Positions 5,430 to 48,778 of a stretch of DNA of 64,000 bases are shown here, in pieces. A program made the translations under genes and the position numbers. Below the pieces are notes generated by a model that saw nothing but the letters and a program-made list of their open reading frames with translations, ran no database searches and was not told the DNA's origin. Within the stretch, counting starts at the first letter, position 1, and each line of letters starts with the position of its first letter. Location of the stretch: positions 32,001 to 96,000 of the IMG/VR virus record IMGVR_UViG_3300030330_006019, one strand, 5' to 3'. Source of the DNA: a virus. Its lineage: Duplodnaviria; Caudoviricetes.

Positions 5430-6727
5430 TTTGTTATCAATCCCTTTCTTTCTAATACTTTTGAACAACTTAAAATTTGAGTAAAACTAAAGTTACTTAA
5501 TTTTGCAATATCAAATAATGTATGATGTCCGTCTGAGTAATTCATTATCCACTTATATGCTTTAATATCATTTTCTAATGTTGTTGCACCAATTTTATTA
5601 TATAAACCTCTCTTTCCAAAATTAGGTTCACATCGTAGATTTGATGATAGATACCTATAATCTTTTTCTAATATAACTATAATTTTTGAATAAATGCTAT
5701 AAATTTCATTTAATTTCTTTTCTGATATAAAATCAATGTTATCATCAGAGTTATGATACTCTGAAAATTCACCAGGTGGTGTTCTCATAAGTGTACCTAT
5801 AGGCATATCAAAACCTGGAGAACTAAATTGTCTTTCATCACTACCTAATGGTGAATAATCTCTAATATATGAATAATCATAATCTTCTAAAACATGCTGT
5901 ACTATGTCATCTATAATTGAACCACTTCTTGTCTTTTTATATGTAACAGGTCCATTATCACCTGCACAAGTAGTAACAAAGCCACCAACATATTTACCTA
6001 AATGTTTTTGATTTTCATGTAACCAACATATTGCACCAATAGTTTCTGGAATAAAAATAAATCTATATGTATAGTAATTTTTTGTTTTTTCTAACTTTTT
6101 AATTAATTTAGTATGTATTGCTGGGCCACTTAAATTATCATTGCACATTGATGGGTGACACAAATATGTACTAAATAATATTTCTTCATTAGACTTTCCT
6201 GGAATTACAACTTCACCATAATTAAGATGTCCTGGCTCCAATGTTGAATCAATGTATGCATGGTATTTACAATCAGATTTTTTTATGTCTTTATATTTAC
6301 CAGCCTTTCCAACAATTCCAGCTTGTGTACTTTCATAATCTGCCATTTGTAGTCCTGAACAGAATCCCCAATCTCTCTTATAATATGAAGTTCTATATGG
6401 TATTCTTTTTGGCATAATTCCAACATAAAGTTTTTTATAAAGTTCTTCCCATGATAAGTGTTTATCAACAGGTTCACTATATCCCATAACATGTAAATTA
6501 CTATTATTAAAATCAATGAGTTTATTTCCAAACGGGTCTTTTACCCATGCATCACGAATATTCCATTCATTTGGAACAACCCAGTCAAATACTTTAGTAC
6601 CTGATGGCACTGAATGTATTTTCATTTTAGTATTAAATTTTGATGAAATAATTTTAAGAGACTTTCTCAAACCTTCACCAGTAATACTTCTACATATTGG
6701 ATATAATTCATTAATTAATTTTTTCAT
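5417..6727 (-). CDS. DUF4910-type polysaccharide-biosynthesis protein (M28 aminopeptidase-like domain plus winged HTH)
   Basis: PICRSITGEGLR, TYLCHPSMCNDNLSG, PETIG, GSDERQF, EYHNSDDN, EPNFGKRGLY. Confidence 0.85.
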   Translation of the reverse strand: MKKLINELYPICRSITGEGLRKSLKIISSKFNTKMKIHSVPSGTKVFDWVVPNEWNIRDAWVKDPFGNKLIDFNNSNLHVMGYSEPVDKHLSWEELYKKLYVGIMPKRIPYRTSYYKRDWGFCSGLQMADYESTQAGIVGKAGKYKDIKKSDCKYHAYIDSTLEPGHLNYGEVVIPGKSNEEILFSTYLCHPSMCNDNLSGPAIHTKLIKKLEKTKNYYTYRFIFIPETIGAICWLHENQKHLGKYVGGFVTTCAGDNGPVTYKKTRSGSIIDDIVQHVLEDYDYSYIRDYSPLGSDERQFSSPGFDMPIGTLMRTPPGEFSEYHNSDDNIDFISEKKLNEIYSIYSKIIVILEKDYRYLSSNLRCEPNFGKRGLYNKIGATTLENDIKAYKWIMNYSDGHHTLFDIAKLSNFSFTQILSCSKVLERKGLITKCIK

Positions 6728-25230: not shown

Positions 25231-25422
25231 CTATAAATTTTTGCCTAATAGTGTTGTTTCTAAAATCTTCTGTCTAAAATTTTTGTCTGTTAAATATAAA
25301 TGAATTGCCCTATTTGTGATTTTTTGAAAATTAAGGTTATCTTGTATTCCTTTAATCTTAAAATCCCTGTGCAACTCTTTAGAAATTTTGACAGATGTTA
25401 ATTTAAGTTTGTCCTGTGTCAT
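25231..25422 (-). CDS. Small DNA-binding protein (ribbon-helix-helix-like)
   Basis: LTSVKI beta strand followed by two basic helices; AGGAG RBS and upstream ATATTTAT motif. Confidence 0.55.
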   Translation of the reverse strand: MTQDKLKLTSVKISKELHRDFKIKGIQDNLNFQKITNRAIHLYLTDKNFRQKILETTLLGKNL

Positions 25423-33103: not shown

Positions 33104-33180
33104 TGGGTGGTAAATGAGAATCGAACTCACAACCTTTGGAACCACAATCCAGTGCTCTAACCTATTGAGCTATTACCACC
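33104..33180 (-). tRNA. tRNA-His (GUG)
   Basis: Minus strand GGTGGTAATAGCTCAATAGGTTAGAGCACTGGATTGTGGTTCCAAAGGTTGTGAGTTCGATTCTCATTTACCACCCA folds as a cloverleaf with anticodon GTG and the G-1:C73 identity pair. Confidence 0.93.
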
Positions 33181-40583: not shown

Positions 40584-40613
40584 AATGTGTAACCTGTTTT
40601 AATTTATTTAATC

Positions 40614-40645
40614 TAATATAACAAAAATTATTGGGATAAAAAAAT
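40614..40645 (-). promoter_or_regulatory. Class A promoter-like motif upstream of dCMP-hydroxymethylase-like gene
   Basis: Minus TTTTTTTATCCCAATAATTTTTGTTATATTA. Confidence 0.65.
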
Positions 40646-41673: not shown

Positions 41674-42566
41674 AAGCAACTAAAATACCTTTCACCTCTA
41701 TCACAAAGGATTGTTATTGCATGTTTACAATCATTGTCTCTTAACCATTCAAATGCTGCCTTAACATTTGCACCTGCACTTATTCCTACAAACAGTCCAA
41801 ACCTATGTGCTAAATGGCGTGCTACTTTTCTTGCACAATTTGTATGTACTGTTTTTATTTCAGTAATTTTTTGCAAATCAACTAGAAATTTACTACCATC
41901 TCCAATACCTTGTATTCCATGAAGTCCTGCTTCACCACCTGACATTACTGCTGACTCTTCTGGTTCAACTGCTACTAAATTCATTCCTGGATAATGTTCT
42001 CTAAGATATTTTCCACAACCCATTATTGTTCCGCCTGTACCTGTTCCTGCTACAAATGCTTGTGGCCAACCTATATTTTGATCAAGTTGTTGTCTAATTT
42101 GTTTTTCTATTTCTGGTCCAGTATTTTTATAGTGTGCTTCAATGTTCAAGGGGTTATGAAATTGATTACAATTGAACCAACCCATCTTTTCACACATTTC
42201 ATCTCTTACCCGTATTGCATTGTCAAAGTCACCTTCCTTAACTTCTATCAAATGAGCACCATAAAACTTCATCATTCGTTTTCTTTCTTCAGACATATTT
42301 GAAGGCATAATGATTGTCATTTGATAACCTCTCTCTGCTGCTAACATAGCAAAAGCAATTCCTGTATTTCCAGAAGTTGCTTCACAAAGTACATCACCTT
42401 TTCTTATTAGATTATTATTTTCTGCATGGTTCAGTATATGAGTTGCCATTCTGTCTTTAACAGAACCGCCAGGATTCATAAATTCACATTTACCCCAAAC
42501 TGTATAACCACCCATTGTAATTGGTATCAATGGTGTATTTCCTACATAACTACTTAACATTTTCAT
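41670..42566 (-). CDS. cysK: Cysteine synthase (O-acetylserine sulfhydrylase) family
   Basis: VGNTPL, NPGGSVKDR, EATSGNTG, NQFHNP, GTGTGGT, HGIQGIG, CDRGERY. Confidence 0.92.
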   Translation of the reverse strand: MKMLSSYVGNTPLIPITMGGYTVWGKCEFMNPGGSVKDRMATHILNHAENNNLIRKGDVLCEATSGNTGIAFAMLAAERGYQMTIIMPSNMSEERKRMMKFYGAHLIEVKEGDFDNAIRVRDEMCEKMGWFNCNQFHNPLNIEAHYKNTGPEIEKQIRQQLDQNIGWPQAFVAGTGTGGTIMGCGKYLREHYPGMNLVAVEPEESAVMSGGEAGLHGIQGIGDGSKFLVDLQKITEIKTVHTNCARKVARHLAHRFGLFVGISAGANVKAAFEWLRDNDCKHAITILCDRGERYFSCL

Positions 42567-42775
42567 TAACTATCAATCCATATATCCATCTCTGCTGGTG
42601 TAGGATATCTTAATCTCAATCCACATTCATTGCATTCCCACATAGCTGAATTTTTTTGGTCCATTTTTATTTGTTTATTTTTGTGTTTACACTCATTCTG
42701 TAATTCAGATAATTCTAATTTTTTTGCTTTAATTTCATCTTGTAAAATTTTAGCTTTATGAGTTATTGTTTTCAT
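42566..42775 (-). CDS. Small zinc-finger hypothetical protein
   Basis: CKH...CNECG. Confidence 0.6.
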   Translation of the reverse strand: MKTITHKAKILQDEIKAKKLELSELQNECKHKNKQIKMDQKNSAMWECNECGLRLRYPTPAEMDIWIDS

Positions 42776-42938
42776 ATGGGCAATGTCTACATCCGCTTTT
42801 ACAACAGTAACCTCGGTTTAGATGGTAATCTTCTGTCATTACCATTTTTCCATTTTCCCAATAATAATCTTTGGTTGATGATTTATTAATTGTTTCCCTA
42901 ATATATAACTCTTCTATCCAACCCCTAAGTAATTTCAC
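42756..42938 (-). CDS. DUF5522-like Cys-rich protein
   Basis: DYYWENGKMVMTEDYHLNRGYCCKSGCRHCPY; probable GTG start with GGAGG RBS inside the end of nrdJ. Confidence 0.75.
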   Translation of the reverse strand: MKLLRGWIEELYIRETINKSSTKDYYWENGKMVMTEDYHLNRGYCCKSGCRHCPYENNNS

Positions 42939-44784
42939 AGCTGCCTCCTGCACAAGCTAGCTCGCCAGATAAATTAGTATTGTCCTCTAACTCTACAACA
43001 TTAGATAAATCAACTTCAGTTAGTGATTTCATCATTTCATTGTATGTGTCTTCATCTATATCTTCAAATGGAGCTTGTGTATATGTTCCACCATCATACG
43101 GTAAAACTGATAGCCCATTGTAATGTTTTCTATTTTCCCACATCCATTCGCCTGCCAAAGTCCAATCATCTTCTTTCAAACTAACAGTTGCAGAAACATT
43201 ATGAGAATTTGAACCTTTTCTATGTCCTGATTTTACCCATTCAGTTGCAACTCTCTTAACTCTATCTAAAAGTTGAAAAGGTGATTCCGTTCTAAGTATA
43301 GAGCCTTCTGGAGCTTTTTGTGGTACCTGAATAACAGCTGTATCATGTGGTCTAAAATATTCATCTTCAACAAGTGCTGGGTGGTTTTCTTTTAGGTAAT
43401 TATATATTGATTCATTTTTACCTACACGTATTCTTCTAATATAATAATTGTTATGCCATGCATGAATACCACTGCTTGTGCCAAGAACAAGGGATGTTGT
43501 TCCAGCCGGTTTTACAGTTGTTGTTCTAGCCGATTGATTTATTTCTATAAGTTTTGCAATTCTTGTGTTTTCCCTTTTTACAACACTTGCAGCTTTTTTC
43601 ATATCATATCCAAGAACAGTGCCACTACCAATACCTGTCATAGATACTCCAATTAAAGCTTCCTTTTCTGTTGTTTCTTGCCAAACTGGTCTAAGATAAT
43701 GAAAATCAGTATACCCTGCTTGGAGTGTACCTATAAATGCTGCTGCTTTAACTCTTTCATTTAAGTCATCTTGTGATTCTATATTACTTACATTTACTTC
43801 ACATAAGTTACAAAATTGAAATGGCCTTAAAGCAATTTCACAACAAGGATTAGTTCCCCAATCTTTGTCATTGTTAAAGTAAATTCCAGGTTCACCTGCC
43901 CCGGATAATTCTACACGTTTCCAAAGATCCAAGAAAAATTCTTTTGTAATTTTATGTCTCATTAAGCAAGCTGAGTTATTTGCTCTACCACGTTGTGGAT
44001 TTAATTCCCACCATTGGCCTGATTTGCAAGCAATCATTTGGTCATCATCTGCACTAAACAAACTAATTAAAGCAGCTCTTCTAATACCACCAGCCAATAC
44101 CGCATCTGCAATATGGCATACAATATCATGTGCTTCTAATGTTGTAAGCTTATCACCAGATTCTTTCTGTTCTAAAATACCTTTTACCTTTAGTATACAC
44201 TCTTTTAGTGGTTGAGGTCCAGGTGCCTTTCCACCAGATGTAACAAGCATTGCACCTTTAGGTCTAATGTCAGAAAAGTCAAATTCTATTTTACTACCAC
44301 CACCATTCATATAAGACTTCATTAATACCTTTATTGCATCGGCCCAGCCTTCAATACTATCACCGATTAAAAATCTTTTCTTTCTTTTTGGATATGGTCT
44401 TTGAATCATTGGCAATTTTTCTACATGGTGTTTTTGTACTGAATAACCTACACCAGTTCCACCTAACAACAAAAACATAGTTTCACTAAAAGCATCAATA
44501 GAATCTATAGGAAGATATGCACAATTATATATTCTATTAGGTGATATTTCAATTGGCTTACCACCAAATTGTAAACTACGCATAGATGGAAGTACTTTTT
44601 TATCATATACTAAATTATATTTTTCCTCTATTTCATCCTTCAGTTGTGGATATTTTTTAATATGCATGTTCTTATTACGTGTAACCAATTCTTTCCACGT
44701 TTCTCTTCTTCCAAGTTCTGGAATAAATTTTGCGTACTTCATATGTACGGTTATATTCGATAAAATCTGATTAGATACTTCCAT
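42925..44784 (-). CDS. nrdJ: Class II (adenosylcobalamin-dependent) ribonucleotide reductase
   Basis: PSMR, YNCA, GTGVG, RRAA, TNPCCEI, TVKPAGT, C-terminal CAGGSCE; no beta subunit nearby. Confidence 0.92.
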   Translation of the reverse strand: MEVSNQILSNITVHMKYAKFIPELGRRETWKELVTRNKNMHIKKYPQLKDEIEEKYNLVYDKKVLPSMRSLQFGGKPIEISPNRIYNCAYLPIDSIDAFSETMFLLLGGTGVGYSVQKHHVEKLPMIQRPYPKRKKRFLIGDSIEGWADAIKVLMKSYMNGGGSKIEFDFSDIRPKGAMLVTSGGKAPGPQPLKECILKVKGILEQKESGDKLTTLEAHDIVCHIADAVLAGGIRRAALISLFSADDDQMIACKSGQWWELNPQRGRANNSACLMRHKITKEFFLDLWKRVELSGAGEPGIYFNNDKDWGTNPCCEIALRPFQFCNLCEVNVSNIESQDDLNERVKAAAFIGTLQAGYTDFHYLRPVWQETTEKEALIGVSMTGIGSGTVLGYDMKKAASVVKRENTRIAKLIEINQSARTTTVKPAGTTSLVLGTSSGIHAWHNNYYIRRIRVGKNESIYNYLKENHPALVEDEYFRPHDTAVIQVPQKAPEGSILRTESPFQLLDRVKRVATEWVKSGHRKGSNSHNVSATVSLKEDDWTLAGEWMWENRKHYNGLSVLPYDGGTYTQAPFEDIDEDTYNEMMKSLTEVDLSNVVELEDNTNLSGELACAGGSCEIT

Positions 44785-44882: not shown

Positions 44883-46244
44883 TCAACTTTTGTTATCTTT
44901 ATCAAGTTCTTTGTACTTATTTTTTAACATTTTTCTCAAGTATTCATTATGATTATTCATGTCCTTTTGAGTCTCTTGTCCTTGCACAGAATTAGACTCA
45001 TATATTTGCATTTGGCCGTTTGACATATTTGCTTTACTTGGAAAAGTAATTCCATCTGGTCCAAACCTATTTTTTATAACATGCCATCTTCCTGTGCCTG
45101 CCAACTTATCCTCTATTTTTCTACTTAATGAAACAACAAAATCTGCTGTCATTATTTTTGCATATGATTCTGCAATCTTTTCTGCTCCAATAACATCTTC
45201 TTCTAAAGCAGAACGATTTGCTTGAGATGCGGTCCAAACCGGAATTTCATGTTCACCAGCCAATCCTCTAAGGTCTTCATAAATGTTGCCTAGCATATGT
45301 CGTACTTCACGGCCTCCACTTATGTCTCTTAATAAATCAGCATAGTCAACTATTACTAAATCCGGCTTAAACCCTTGCACCCTACACTTTTCAATATGTG
45401 CACCAATTGTTGATACTGAAGCAGACTTTGTTGGGTATTGTTTTATTATCAAATCACCTTTCATATTTCCAACTGTCTTTTTAACTTCTTCAATATTGTA
45501 CTTCAAATCTTGTGCTGATATTCCAGTAAATACACTATCATATCTTAAACCTACATATGCCTCATTTAATTCCAATGTATAGTGTATAACATTTAACCCA
45601 GCCTTTGCAGCATTTGCACCAACATTAACCAATGCCCATGACTTACCAATACCTGCAGGTGCAACAAATACTCCTAATTCACCTTTCCCTAAACCACCAT
45701 CAGCTATATCATCTATAACATCCCAGCCAGTTGTTATTGTGTTTCTTACAGATTCTGAATATCTTTCATCAATTTCATCTTTATATTCATGACCTACATC
45801 CTTCTCTACACCAGCTTTCATAGCTGCATCAACGGTTGATTTTATTCCATCAAAATCATTTAGTTTCAACAATTCAACGGATTCCATAATTGCAGACTTA
45901 ATACATTGGTTTTTACAAAAATCAAGTGTTTGTTGTTTTACAAAATCCAAATCTGAAGATTCTAAATTTCTATATGCATCCTTTAATGTATCAACTACAG
46001 TTTGAGTTAGTAGTTCACTTTCTATTTCTGCAACCTTGACCTTCATTACTTCTAATGTTGGTGGAGATTTATACTCATTAAAATAGTTTTGTATTTCCTT
46101 TATGATAAAAAAGTTTGCTTCATTTTCAAACATTTTAGGGTCAAGAATGTCATTGATTTGTTGAAGGAAAGCCTTATCTGTAAACAGTGCGGCTATCAAT
46201 TTTATTTGAAATAAATTTCCGTAATCTGCTAGTCTACTTGTCAT
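44883..46244 (-). CDS. Replicative DnaB-like (T4 gp41-type) helicase
   Basis: APAGIGKS, YTLEL, IVDYADLL, WTASQANR, KNRFG. Confidence 0.93.
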   Translation of the reverse strand: MTSRLADYGNLFQIKLIAALFTDKAFLQQINDILDPKMFENEANFFIIKEIQNYFNEYKSPPTLEVMKVKVAEIESELLTQTVVDTLKDAYRNLESSDLDFVKQQTLDFCKNQCIKSAIMESVELLKLNDFDGIKSTVDAAMKAGVEKDVGHEYKDEIDERYSESVRNTITTGWDVIDDIADGGLGKGELGVFVAPAGIGKSWALVNVGANAAKAGLNVIHYTLELNEAYVGLRYDSVFTGISAQDLKYNIEEVKKTVGNMKGDLIIKQYPTKSASVSTIGAHIEKCRVQGFKPDLVIVDYADLLRDISGGREVRHMLGNIYEDLRGLAGEHEIPVWTASQANRSALEEDVIGAEKIAESYAKIMTADFVVSLSRKIEDKLAGTGRWHVIKNRFGPDGITFPSKANMSNGQMQIYESNSVQGQETQKDMNNHNEYLRKMLKNKYKELDKDNKS

Positions 46245-47283
46245 ATGTCATTCCTGCATAAGAGTCTAATGGTAAAAATACTTGTTTTAACCATAAGTCT
46301 GGGTTTTTAATTGAGCCATTTATTTTATCTTCTAATACCATTTTTTGGAATTCATATTTAACCAATCTCTGTATTGGTGACCTAACTGTGTCCATTATTT
46401 TTGTCTTTGCTGAACCAGATATATCAACTTCATTTAGCTGCATTAATTTATAATTCATATCTAACAATTCCTTAGACTCGGATATTGTTTTTAGTATTTT
46501 ATACTTTGAGTTTTTTTCTGTAAAGTCAATTATTTCATCAATAGTTATTGTTCTATCTTCAGTTATTATAGGTATTCTATTTGCAATTGTTTTTCTGCCT
46601 GCACCTCGTATTCCAGGTATATTATCTGATGCATCTCCTTCAATTGTCCTATATAGTAAAAAGTTATGTGATGGTATACCATACTCTTCCATTATAGTTT
46701 CCTTAAAATAAAATTTCTTTTTTGTTGGCGACCATATATGAACCTTATCAGATACAAGTTGAAGAAAATCCCTATCTGTTGACATAATAAATTTTTGACT
46801 ATTCGGATATACTTGTTGAGAAATATACGCCATACTATCATCTGCTTCAATATTTTCTACACTTAAAACTGTAAGTGGTAATTGTTGCATGTATTGTGCA
46901 CAACGCATTAATTGTTGTTTCATAGACAATGATTCATCTTCCAATGTATTGTGATTACCATGTCTTGTTAGTCTTGACCTAACTCTACGATTTGCTTTAT
47001 AATCTGGAAATATTTTTCTTCTTCTTTGGCTGCCACCTTTTCCATCAAAGCAAACAATAACTCGAGTTGGTTTAATATTTTTAATTGCATAGCCAATAGA
47101 CATTAATGTACCAGTTATTCCACCAACATGTATACCATCATCATTTGTTACTGGGTTTGCTGCAAAGGCTCTGATAAATGTGTTTAGTCCATCAACTATT
47201 AGTATCCTATCATTAGGATTTGAAGGGTTGTCTTTGTTTTCCTCCAATGTTTCTAGTATTGAAAAGTATCTGTTTTTTGACAT
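46234..47283 (-). CDS. 5'-3' exonuclease / RNase H (FEN-like)
   Basis: IVDGLN, FDG, YKANR, EADD, STDRDFLQL, GDASDNIPGIRGAG. Confidence 0.93.
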   Translation of the reverse strand: MSKNRYFSILETLEENKDNPSNPNDRILIVDGLNTFIRAFAANPVTNDDGIHVGGITGTLMSIGYAIKNIKPTRVIVCFDGKGGSQRRRKIFPDYKANRRVRSRLTRHGNHNTLEDESLSMKQQLMRCAQYMQQLPLTVLSVENIEADDSMAYISQQVYPNSQKFIMSTDRDFLQLVSDKVHIWSPTKKKFYFKETIMEEYGIPSHNFLLYRTIEGDASDNIPGIRGAGRKTIANRIPIITEDRTITIDEIIDFTEKNSKYKILKTISESKELLDMNYKLMQLNEVDISGSAKTKIMDTVRSPIQRLVKYEFQKMVLEDKINGSIKNPDLWLKQVFLPLDSYAGMTYDK

Positions 47284-47306
47284 ATGCTATTATCTTTTAT
47301 TTATTA

Positions 47307-47338
47307 TAATATAACTAAAATATTTGGGATAAAAAAAT
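47307..47338 (-). promoter_or_regulatory. Class A promoter-like motif upstream of 5'-3' exonuclease
   Basis: Minus TTTTTTTATCCCAAATATTTTAGTTATATTA. Confidence 0.65.
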
Positions 47339-47347
47339 ATTTTTGGT

Positions 47348-47385
47348 AAAAAAAGCCCCTTCATTGTGAAACAAATCCAGGGCTT
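47348..47385 (-). terminator. Rho-independent terminator closing the ssb-recA unit
   Basis: Minus strand AAGCCCT...AGGGGCTT followed by a T run. Confidence 0.65.
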
Positions 47386-47638
47386 CCAAGCTGATATAGT
47401 ATATGTTTATAGTATCTCCAACAGTGACGATTAGAGAACAATTGGTATCAGCCACATATACCTTAATCATTAATTTTCTTTGGGGTCACTTGGCCAAAGA
47501 TAAATCACTTGTTAACAACATTGGTCGGTTAAATAAATCATTCTATAAGTGCGGATTTTTAACCTTAACATCCTACGCCACGAGAAGGCTGTTGTTGTGT
47601 AGGACGAAGTAAAAGGTGGGGTTAACCACCAATTACTT
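47348..47638 (-). ncRNA. Candidate structured non-coding RNA
   Basis: Longest intergenic gap in the window, GC-richer than flanks, six or more stems in series plus loop-loop complementarity; family not recognised. Confidence 0.55.
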
Positions 47639-47650
47639 ATTCATAACCTA

Positions 47651-48778
47651 TTATCCTTCTGGTACTGGTTCACTGCTGATTTCAACATCATCAATTCCAA
47701 AATTATCAATCTTGTAATTCATAATAATTGTATCTGCAATTTTATCATAAATCTCTGTTCTTAGTTCTTCATTGTTTTCCAATAATGAATTCCAATCTTT
47801 TGACATAAATTTATGGTCCTTTCCAGTTGCGTCTGTATATGTGTACCAACTACCACCTTGTTTTACAAGTTTGTAATCTTTTAGAACATGTAACCATCCA
47901 CCAAAATCATCAATGCCACTTTCAAAATAAATTTCAAATTGTGACTTTCTTAATGGTGGTCCCATTCTATTTTTTACAACTTGTGCAACAGTTTTAATAC
48001 CCATAACTTGTTCTTGACCATCAACTCTTGCTTTGATTTGTCCCATTGGTTTAAGCCTTAGTCTACAACTGGAATGGAAAGCTACTGCCTTACCTCCAGA
48101 TGTAGTCCAAGGATCACCAAACATAACCCCCATCTTTTGTCTAAGTTGGTTTGTAAATACAAGACAAATTCTCTGTCTTCCTATCATTTGAGTAATCTTA
48201 CGCATAGCCTTTGATAAAATAATTGCTTTACTGGTTGCCCAGCCATCCTTTCCATAATCAGCTTCACTTTCAACTTTGGTTGTTGAACCAGCCAATGAAT
48301 CTACAACTATAGTAACAAGCCTATCCTTATCACTTTCTCTAACTTTAGTTATGATGTTTTCCATAACCTCAAAAATTTCCTCAACAGTTTCCAATTGAAT
48401 ATATAACATGTTTCCAACGTCGATTCCAATTGCCGTAGCAAATTCCTCATTCATTGCATTTTCTGTATCAATGTAAACTGCAAGTCCACCTTGTTTTTGT
48501 GTATTTGCAAGTAGGTGAGCAGCCATAAGACTTTTTCCACTACCTTCAAGACCAGTTATTTCAGTAATTCTACCAACTGGTATTCCACCATTTTTTCTGT
48601 TAGAGATTGCAAGGTCTAGCATAGATGACCCAGTACTAATCCACTCTGTCAAGTCAGTTGGTGTTTCTTCAGTACCGTCAAGAAAGTAAGCAACTTTATA
48701 GTCCTTAAATTTCTTATTAAGACTATCTGCTAACAAATTTGCTAAATCATCTCTCTTTGTAGTTACTTTCTTTGCCAT
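47651..48778 (-). CDS. recA: RecA/UvsX recombinase
   Basis: ISTGS, GRITEITGLEGSGKS, YIDTE, VVDS, FTNQLR, TTSGGKA, KNRMGPP. Confidence 0.95.
   Translation of the reverse strand: MAKKVTTKRDDLANLLADSLNKKFKDYKVAYFLDGTEETPTDLTEWISTGSSMLDLAISNRKNGGIPVGRITEITGLEGSGKSLMAAHLLANTQKQGGLAVYIDTENAMNEEFATAIGIDVGNMLYIQLETVEEIFEVMENIITKVRESDKDRLVTIVVDSLAGSTTKVESEADYGKDGWATSKAIILSKAMRKITQMIGRQRICLVFTNQLRQKMGVMFGDPWTTSGGKAVAFHSSCRLRLKPMGQIKARVDGQEQVMGIKTVAQVVKNRMGPPLRKSQFEIYFESGIDDFGGWLHVLKDYKLVKQGGSWYTYTDATGKDHKFMSKDWNSLLENNEELRTEIYDKIADTIIMNYKIDNFGIDDVEISSEPVPEG

Follow-up and report, generated by a model that had tools for sequence, protein, structure and literature searches.

The window analysed here is a stretch of 64,000 nt which forms part of a 105-kb virus record, and 69 of its 70 open reading frames (ORFs) are carried by the minus strand. 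Read 5' to 3' along this strand, the genes of a gp32-like SSB and of RecA are followed by a gap of 367 nt, and then by the genes of an exonuclease, a DnaB-like helicase and ribonucleotide reductase. The two genes which border the gap are:

47651..48778, minus strand: recA/UvsX-like recombinase gene (Pfam RecA, 7.8e-59; phrog_97, UvsX-like), stop codon at 47653..47651
46234..47283, minus strand: 5'-3' FEN / T4 RNase H-like exonuclease gene (Pfam 5_3_exonuc_N, 7.1e-33; phrog_107)

Judged by RecA, the nearest isolate is Microcystis phage Mel-JY01, with an identity of only 54%. Since RecA is at most 54% identical to that of any cultured phage, the window belongs to an uncultured lineage. The relatives used for comparison were drawn from IMG/VR contigs, and part of the metagenome matches are labelled marine.

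The original prediction had described the gap between recA and the exonuclease gene as the only long non-coding one of the window and as GC-richer than its flanks. The GC content is indeed higher, but only slightly (0.355-0.37 vs about 0.28-0.33), and other gaps of 187-358 nt do exist on the map of ORFs of at least 70 aa. Two of these other gaps, when inspected, were found to hold ORFs of 63-69 aa (42566-42953 and 25231-25422, minus strand) and one gap holds a tRNA-His, so that the recA-exonuclease gap is essentially the sole long non-coding one. One of the small ORFs (42756..42953, minus strand) has a cysteine-rich C-terminus, CCKSGCRHCP. The tRNA-His(GUG) gene, at 33105-33179 on the minus strand, is the only Rfam or ARAGORN match in the window.

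Several hairpins had been listed for this gap, and all the listed stems are found at their plus-strand coordinates: the AAGTAA..TTACTT hairpin at 47607-47638 (hairpin 1 below), TCCTAC/GTAGGA enclosing GCC/GGC at 47571-47604 (the P1/P3 hairpin), the GGTTAAA..TTTAACC hairpin at 47527-47564 (P4), TCTTTGG/CCAAAGA at 47477-47500 (hairpin A), TCTCCAA/TTAGAGA at 47415-47437 (hairpin B), and, at 47345-47385, a terminator hairpin whose GC stem is followed by U7. Both loop hexamers, which are complementary to each other, are likewise present, at 47485-47490 and 47423-47428. It turned out that the structured RNA is the minus-strand reading, which is the sense strand of recA and of the exonuclease gene, and the minimum free energy (MFE) fold of this strand recovers hairpin 1, the P1/P3 and P4 hairpins, hairpins A and B and the terminator. 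Compared with shuffled sequences, the folding energy is modestly unusual: z is -2.48 (1 of 100 shuffles) when the whole stretch is folded, -2.74 when hairpin 1 is folded together with the ribozyme described below, and -1.58 for the module M2 which follows it. As these z-scores are only moderate (-1.6 to -2.7), folding energy alone is not decisive, and the support for the structure comes from covariation in relatives. The P1/P3 and P4 hairpins are real, but the pseudoknot P2 (47590-47596 with 47514-47520) had been overlooked, and it is P2 which makes a ribozyme of these two hairpins. The ribozyme and the hairpin before it are arranged as follows:

47607..47638, minus strand: hairpin 1, from the MFE fold, flagged as terminator-like, with a U-rich tail; its 3' end lies 1 nt before the predicted cut
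47514..47605, minus strand: predicted HDV-like self-cleaving ribozyme, from covariation in 43 sequences; predicted cut between 47606 and 47605
47605-47599 with 47576-47570, minus strand: P1, 7 bp, in which G47605.U47570 is the G1.U pair
47596-47590 with 47520-47514, minus strand: P2 pseudoknot, two perfectly complementary 7-nt strands
47589-47587 with 47579-47577, minus strand: P3, 3 bp
47586-47580, minus strand: L3, 7 nt
47569-47565, minus strand: J1/4
47564-47527, minus strand: P4, 38 nt, long and bulged
47526-47521, minus strand: J4/2, with an invariant C at 47524

The order of these helices, P1, P2, P3, L3, P3', P1', J1/4, P4, J4/2 and P2', is the HDV order. When the region was compared with 80 recA loci by blastn, exactly the ribozyme unit was conserved on its own. 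A pattern scan of viral contigs gave 43 distinct sequences with the complete layout, all from marine phage contigs, while P1 was missing in the pattern matches without the full layout, which serve as a control for chance matches. The covariance model of the ribozyme (R1) scores 90 bits in the window and finds a single copy both there and in the whole 105-kb record. The unit is intergenic and runs in the sense of its neighbours; the overlapping ORFs are only chance frames of 60 aa, in two copies of one contig. Other searches returned nothing: the gap and one ribozyme had no blastn match among 50,697 phage records, exact 35-mers were not found in viral contigs, and the marine ribozyme family was not found in a scan of species-representative genomes (genome_contigs).

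Covariation was measured on a MAFFT alignment of the 43 distinct sequences, in which P2 was entered as a pseudoknot. Nearly all pair cells (98.8%) are paired, compared with 31-45% when the partners are slid. Changes on both sides are found in 17 of 28 pairs, against a shuffle mean of 6.4, and this number was reached by none of 500 shuffles. By helix, both sides have changed in 5 of 7 pairs of P1, 8 of 11 of P4 and 1 of 3 of P3, and compensatory changes are seen in P1, P2, P3 and P4. For P2, the window lineage has AACAACA/UGUUGUU, complementary 7-mers which are wholly unlike those of the majority.

The nucleotides expected at the catalytic core are conserved as well. The cytosine C47524 lies three nt before the 3' strand of P2, and the C at this place in J4/2 is invariant in 51 of 51 distinct contexts; as it was absent from the search pattern, its invariance is independent of the search. 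Since two purines stand between this C and the final Watson-Crick pair of P4, it may or may not count as the first nucleotide of J4/2, according to where P4 is taken to end. The first pair of P1 is G1.U in 40 of the 43 homologues and G1-C in the other 3. A G1.U wobble closing P1 at the cleavage site is a defining feature of the HDV family. The consensus of L3 is UUC[ACU]CG[UC], with UUCACGU as the commonest form. Its C and the first G of J1/4 are invariant and could pair as P1.1, an invariance which leaves no covariation to read; P1.1 would be weak, with one G-C pair plus U.U, and that of CPEB3 is likewise drawn as one G-C plus U.U. The start of the P4 loop, UCC[U/G]CAC (47555-47549 in the window, minus strand), is near-invariant in all 43 homologues. 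In HDV-like ribozymes, no other part usually varies as much as P4.

At the Rfam gathering score, the window and 19 loci gave tRNAs only, and none of RF02682, RF00094 and RF00622. A relaxed scan did return RF02682, the F. prausnitzii HDV ribozyme, at 47605..47558 of the window, with sub-threshold scores of 18.2 bits there and 25.1 bits in another locus (L098), the gathering score being 44. At gathering level the element thus matches no catalogued family, but the ribozyme belongs to a known class regardless. From its sequence, 47605..47514 is a predicted HDV-like self-cleaving ribozyme of that known class, in a long-P4 subfamily that is new.

A separate observation concerns a Falsigemmobacter faecalis contig (L431; NZ_RRAZ01000021.1, minus strand, about 6443-6467), in which a chance match to the L3 pattern stands in HDV order, with P1 strands that are complementary, a P2 pair rich in GC and a perfect P4 hairpin, yet a C1-G start. 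It is possibly an unrelated bacterial HDV-like fold.

To both sides of the ribozyme, the neighbouring sequence also follows a pattern. Upstream, in 32 of 51 distinct homologous contexts, only 0-3 nt lie between the end of the MFE structure and G1; in the window this structure is hairpin 1, which together with the U-rich tail could stop some of the transcripts ahead of the ribozyme. Downstream, a U run directly follows the 3' strand of P2 in about 40 of 51 contexts (for example L043:5158-5330, L098:2392-2520 and L082:3145-3260). A tRNA-Ala(UGC) lies about 4 nt 3' of the ribozyme at L046:3250-3324, L082:3250-3324, L116:8965-9039 and L124:13643-13717. The window lineage has neither U run nor tRNA after P2, and its ribozyme runs straight into M2. 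In the group of L082, the ribozyme plus U run holds the slot which an ordinary terminator takes after M2 elsewhere, and the ribozyme fold may double as a terminator-like 3'-end device.

The stretch after the ribozyme, when aligned with relatives, has conserved loops, covarying stems and an invariant 11-mer, GCUGAUACCAA. Its parts in the window are:

47387..47511, minus strand: module M2, an uncatalogued structured RNA by prediction (covariance model R2, 122 bits)
47511-47507 with 47391-47387, minus strand: outer stem of M2, 5 bp in the window
47500-47477, minus strand: hairpin A, with the kissing hexamer 47490-47485
47452-47442, minus strand: invariant 11-mer GCUGAUACCAA, from the alignment with relatives
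47437-47415, minus strand: hairpin B, with the kissing hexamer 47428-47423

A search with the core of M2 placed it directly after recA in 27 of 75 recA loci. At least 33 distinct M2 sequences are known from these relatives, in three subfamilies and all directly after recA; a metagenome scan added few further variants among the matches listed. With 33 true members aligned by a covariance model which held only the two hairpin stems, both sides have changed in 6 of 6 pairs of hairpin A and 5 of 7 of hairpin B. In most lineages the outer stem is 13 bp or longer and rich in compensatory changes, whereas the 5-bp stem of the window, taken alone, is not above chance. Within M2, the original prediction had also drawn a helix GCTGATA/TATCAGC. 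The two strands are present in the window, but the full helix is specific to the window lineage and only GCU/AGC is conserved; in other lineages the GC of the conserved AGC pairs in the outer stem instead. As a helix of the family it was rejected, since it is not kept across relatives. A further candidate, stem C, was rejected too, being not above chance in AT-rich sequence.

The loop-loop pair which had been proposed from the two complementary hexamers proved real. It was absent from the model by which the 20 sequences of subfamily I were aligned, and the helix is fully paired in 20 of 20 of them, with compensatory changes. At pair 1, 13 sequences have A-U and the other 7 G-C; at pair 2, 19 have G-C and one has A-U. 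Pairs 1 and 2 thus differ on both sides, while pair 5 is A-U in 16 sequences and the wobble G.U in 4. The hexamers are swapped for others elsewhere. Subfamily II has UAUAGC/GCUAUA at the same positions of its 10-nt loops, as compared with AGUGAC/GUCACU, and 4 of the 6 pairs differ on both sides. The kissing helix of subfamily III has only 2+2 Watson-Crick pairs around an A.G. An automated test of complementarity between loop and upstream sequence was too noisy to use, as the MFE folds of short pieces over-pair the loops.

M2 has no counterpart in the catalogues searched. Rfam 15 gave only scattered chance matches to snoRNA, miRNA and lncRNA families in the window and L082, nothing was returned at E up to 1 for four loci of subfamilies I, II and III, and a relaxed M2 pattern found only chance matches in coding sequence among viral contigs. 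By its covariation, M2 is a well-supported structured RNA, predicted as a separate module outside every catalogued family.

Between M2 and the exonuclease gene there are two further features:

47345..47385, minus strand: intrinsic-terminator-like hairpin, with the stem AAGCCC/GGGCUU, an inner hairpin and then U7
47305..47333, minus strand: phage promoter-like motif before the exonuclease gene (two copies in the window vs 0 by chance)

The terminator-like hairpin was missed by a simple terminator scanner because its loop is longer than 8 nt. Relatives have an equivalent GC stem plus U run after M2, with different stem sequences, and wherever M2 is not followed by a ribozyme, a GC hairpin with a U run always comes within a few nucleotides. 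The promoter-like motif consists of TTTATCCCAA, a spacer and GTTATATTA, and its copies in the window lie at 40612-40640 and 47305-47333 (minus strand). Similar motifs occur several times per related locus, also before the exonuclease gene, and probably represent a phage-specific promoter class. In the window and in L002, this motif is next after the terminator. For subfamilies II and III, by comparison, 12 loci were examined and the distance from the terminator to the start codon of the exonuclease gene is about 10-30 nt, which leaves no room for a promoter, so the exonuclease gene would need read-through there. Loci of these subfamilies include L014:5250-5306, L016, L018, L019, L008, L009, L045, L049, L012 and L051; in subfamily III, the ribosome-binding site AAGGAAG precedes the start codon. 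No alternative pairing of the riboswitch type between M2 and the terminator was found.

The distribution of the two modules among relatives shows how far they belong together. Among the 75 recA loci, 14 contain only the ribozyme, 22 only M2, 5 both and 34 neither; where both occur, the ribozyme precedes M2 in three loci (as in the window) and follows it in two. In several related loci, recA and the exonuclease gene are just 13-24 nt apart. Because the modules are found apart, together and in either order, with both missing in so many loci and some gaps this short, they are accessory cassettes, not one RNA. Sequence and covariation establish that there are two folds, that each is independent of the other and that both have a constant place after recA.

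This result divides the original prediction of one new element of about 290 nt. A folded non-coding RNA with tertiary pairings, in recA sense and ended by a terminator, is borne out by covariation in both modules, and related phages do have compensatory changes, including in the loop-loop pair. The unity of the element is not upheld, for its 5' third is an HDV-like ribozyme by prediction and the rest an independent module. That the whole stretch is a single integrated RNA, with its hairpins in one tertiary fold, is very improbable. The modules are only 2 nt apart, and once it had cut itself the ribozyme would still be joined to M2 and the terminator in a single molecule; against this, the parts are separate and in either order in relatives, a distribution which largely refutes the idea, the 5' part shows every sequence hallmark of an autonomous HDV-like ribozyme, and conserved pairing between the modules was not seen. 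Even less credible is a DNA-level element, such as a replication origin or a protein-binding repeat, or a gene of a small protein. The gap does sit among replication genes, and the DNA-level role had been ranked from the start as an alternative only; it is unlikely, since many G.U pairs fit the sense strand only. Read on the opposite strand, the conserved ones (G1.U, in 40 of 43 homologues; U.G in hairpin B) would turn into C.A mismatches, U.G pairs are also found at the inner end of the M2 outer stem, and conserved G.U pairs in both modules thus point to a sense-strand RNA only, and not to DNA cruciforms or antisense. A 51-aa ORF (47470..47315, minus strand) and a 69-aa ORF on the plus strand exist, but the substitutions are compensatory and not codon-like, the indels in close relatives are non-triplet, and the 51-aa ORF extends across both the terminator and the promoter motif.

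Very probably, then, the gap holds three separable RNA units, an HDV-like ribozyme, M2 and a terminator, transcribed with recA. Cleavage by the ribozyme and co-transcription with recA are what we infer from this arrangement, and the events would be as follows. Transcription of recA would run through hairpin 1 into the ribozyme, which would fold and cut the chain immediately 5' of G47605. Hairpin 1, with a 2',3'-cyclic phosphate, would then form the end of the recA mRNA, and the downstream product would begin with a 5'-hydroxyl inside the compact ribozyme fold and continue into M2, a closed multi-helix RNA with kissing loops and a single-stranded 11-mer. The intrinsic terminator would end the transcript, so that the freed RNA of about 260 nt would consist of ribozyme, M2 and terminator, and in the window the exonuclease gene would start from its own promoter. 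As M2 lies nearly always just before a 3'-end-forming element (a terminator, or ribozyme plus U run), the preferred reading is that M2 is a 3'-terminal domain of the recA transcript. Such a domain may bind a factor, or may adjust how the 3' end is formed and how far transcription reads on into the exonuclease gene.

For the function of M2 we favour a protein-binding or stability domain, or else control of termination, both held tentatively. The former, in which M2 acts as a stable non-coding RNA, or as the domain at the 3' end of recA mRNA, and binds a phage or host protein or blocks 3' exonucleases, is a plausible candidate: M2 is always at the 3' end of the recA transcript beside a 3'-end-forming element, its closing stem is long, and in the window lineage the ribozyme would free it from the mRNA. 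A mere block to exonucleases would make the invariant loops and the 11-mer superfluous, and for a stable RNA with a target in trans, complementary sites in the window are no commoner than by chance, with 5 matches to GCUGAUACCAA (at most 3 mismatches) vs 6.9 expected, one of the 5 being the element's own reverse strand. It is possible, too, that M2 is a cis regulator of termination (an attenuator, riboswitch-like, or a processive antiterminator) which controls read-through from recA into the exonuclease and helicase genes. An intrinsic terminator after M2 wherever the ribozyme does not follow, the need of read-through in the 12 loci of subfamilies II and III, and the invariant unpaired 11-mer in a closed junction with kissing arms are consistent with it; however, a mutually exclusive pairing of M2 and terminator was not found, read-through would be unneeded in the window and L002 with their promoter motif after the terminator, and it is a ribozyme which follows M2 in the L082 group. 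A more specific idea is rather doubtful, namely that M2 is a new class of cis-acting RNA which governs how the recA transcript ends, and with it the read-through into the exonuclease and helicase genes, according to a protein or small molecule, with ribozyme plus U run interchangeable with a terminator. In that case a self-cleaving ribozyme would serve this phage clade as a 3'-end-forming device.

For the ribozyme, it is unlikely that the HDV-like fold is purely structural and does not cleave in vivo, serving as a 3'-end or terminator structure, a 5' stabiliser or a translation enhancer. The frequent U run directly after the 3' strand of P2, the place of ribozyme plus U run in the terminator slot of other lineages in the L082 group, and the conserved P4 loop, which catalysis does not explain, would agree with such a role, and HDV-like ribozymes have been proposed as translation aids in retrotransposons (PMC6765202). 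But the catalytic C, G1.U and the L3 core are conserved beyond what a scaffold of helices needs, and the window copy is without a U run after P2.

What HDV-like ribozymes do in phages is only beginning to be understood, and the one role tested so far, in gut phages, is the maturation of tRNA 3' ends. In the marine phage clade studied here, which is uncultured and abundant, a distinct long-P4 subfamily has a constant position within the operon for replication and recombination. With a hairpin before the predicted cut and a U run, a tRNA or another RNA after it, this arrangement would allow the making of mRNA ends by a ribozyme to be tested in a DNA phage. With 33 variants and a covarying kissing loop, M2 makes a good candidate for a new RNA with a regulatory or a protein-binding role. 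Routine Rfam annotation overlooks both. The marine long-P4 family and M2 are undescribed in the searchable literature, which leaves most subscription journals outside, and the only phage HDV-like ribozymes in this literature are the minimal, tRNA-linked theta ribozymes of gut phages.

Compared with known systems, M2 is similar to the purine riboswitch aptamer in its closing helix, its two arms with pairing loops and the conserved unpaired nucleotides between. The purine riboswitch aptamer is a three-way junction with kissing arms. M2 differs in that it has no sequence or Rfam similarity to it, no evident ligand or switch, a loop-loop helix of 6-7 bp, a location in the 3' UTR, and its 11-mer between the poorly supported stem C and hairpin B. 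As for the place after a coding region, twister and hammerhead ribozymes have been reported in bacterial 3' UTRs (Felletti et al. 2017, as cited in PMC6765202); from the account given there, cleavage would likewise define the 3' end of the mRNA, and the ribozyme class differs.

The theta ribozymes are minimal HDV-like ribozymes of gut Caudoviricetes (Kienbeck et al. 2024, PMC10879173), found through a minimal-drz motif with a shortened L4 loop, minimal drzs being without the P4 domain. They cut at the 3' end of tRNAs, and more than 80% are from gut phages, with few elsewhere (PMC10879173). Like them, the ribozymes described here are HDV-like ribozymes of tailed phages which lie in non-coding regions in the sense of neighbouring genes. 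Unlike them, P4 is long, the phages are marine, and there is no upstream tRNA; any adjacent tRNA sits 3', so that the arrangement with tRNA-Ala is the reverse of that of theta ribozymes, which sit 3' of tRNAs. Identity with theta or other minimal HDV-like ribozymes was rejected, as P4 has 38 nt in the window and an upstream tRNA is missing.

The closest likeness is to HDV, mammalian CPEB3 and F. prausnitzii drz (RF00094, RF00622 and RF02682), which have the same helix order in a nested double pseudoknot, a 7-bp P1 with a G1.U start, a 3-bp P3 closing a 7-nt L3, a C three nt before the 3' strand of P2 and two adenines in J1/4. The commonest phage L3, UUCACGU, is that of the mouse CPEB3 ribozyme, as read off a published primer (PMC10274809). 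The Rfam models of HDV reach only 18-25 bits vs 44 on the phage ribozyme, and their alignment puts J4/2 wrongly. What sets the phage ribozymes apart from these three is the long P4 (38 nt in the window) with its bulge and conserved loop, their fixed place after recA in an uncultured marine phage clade, and their surroundings, with a hairpin abutting the cleavage site and a U run or tRNA usually following.
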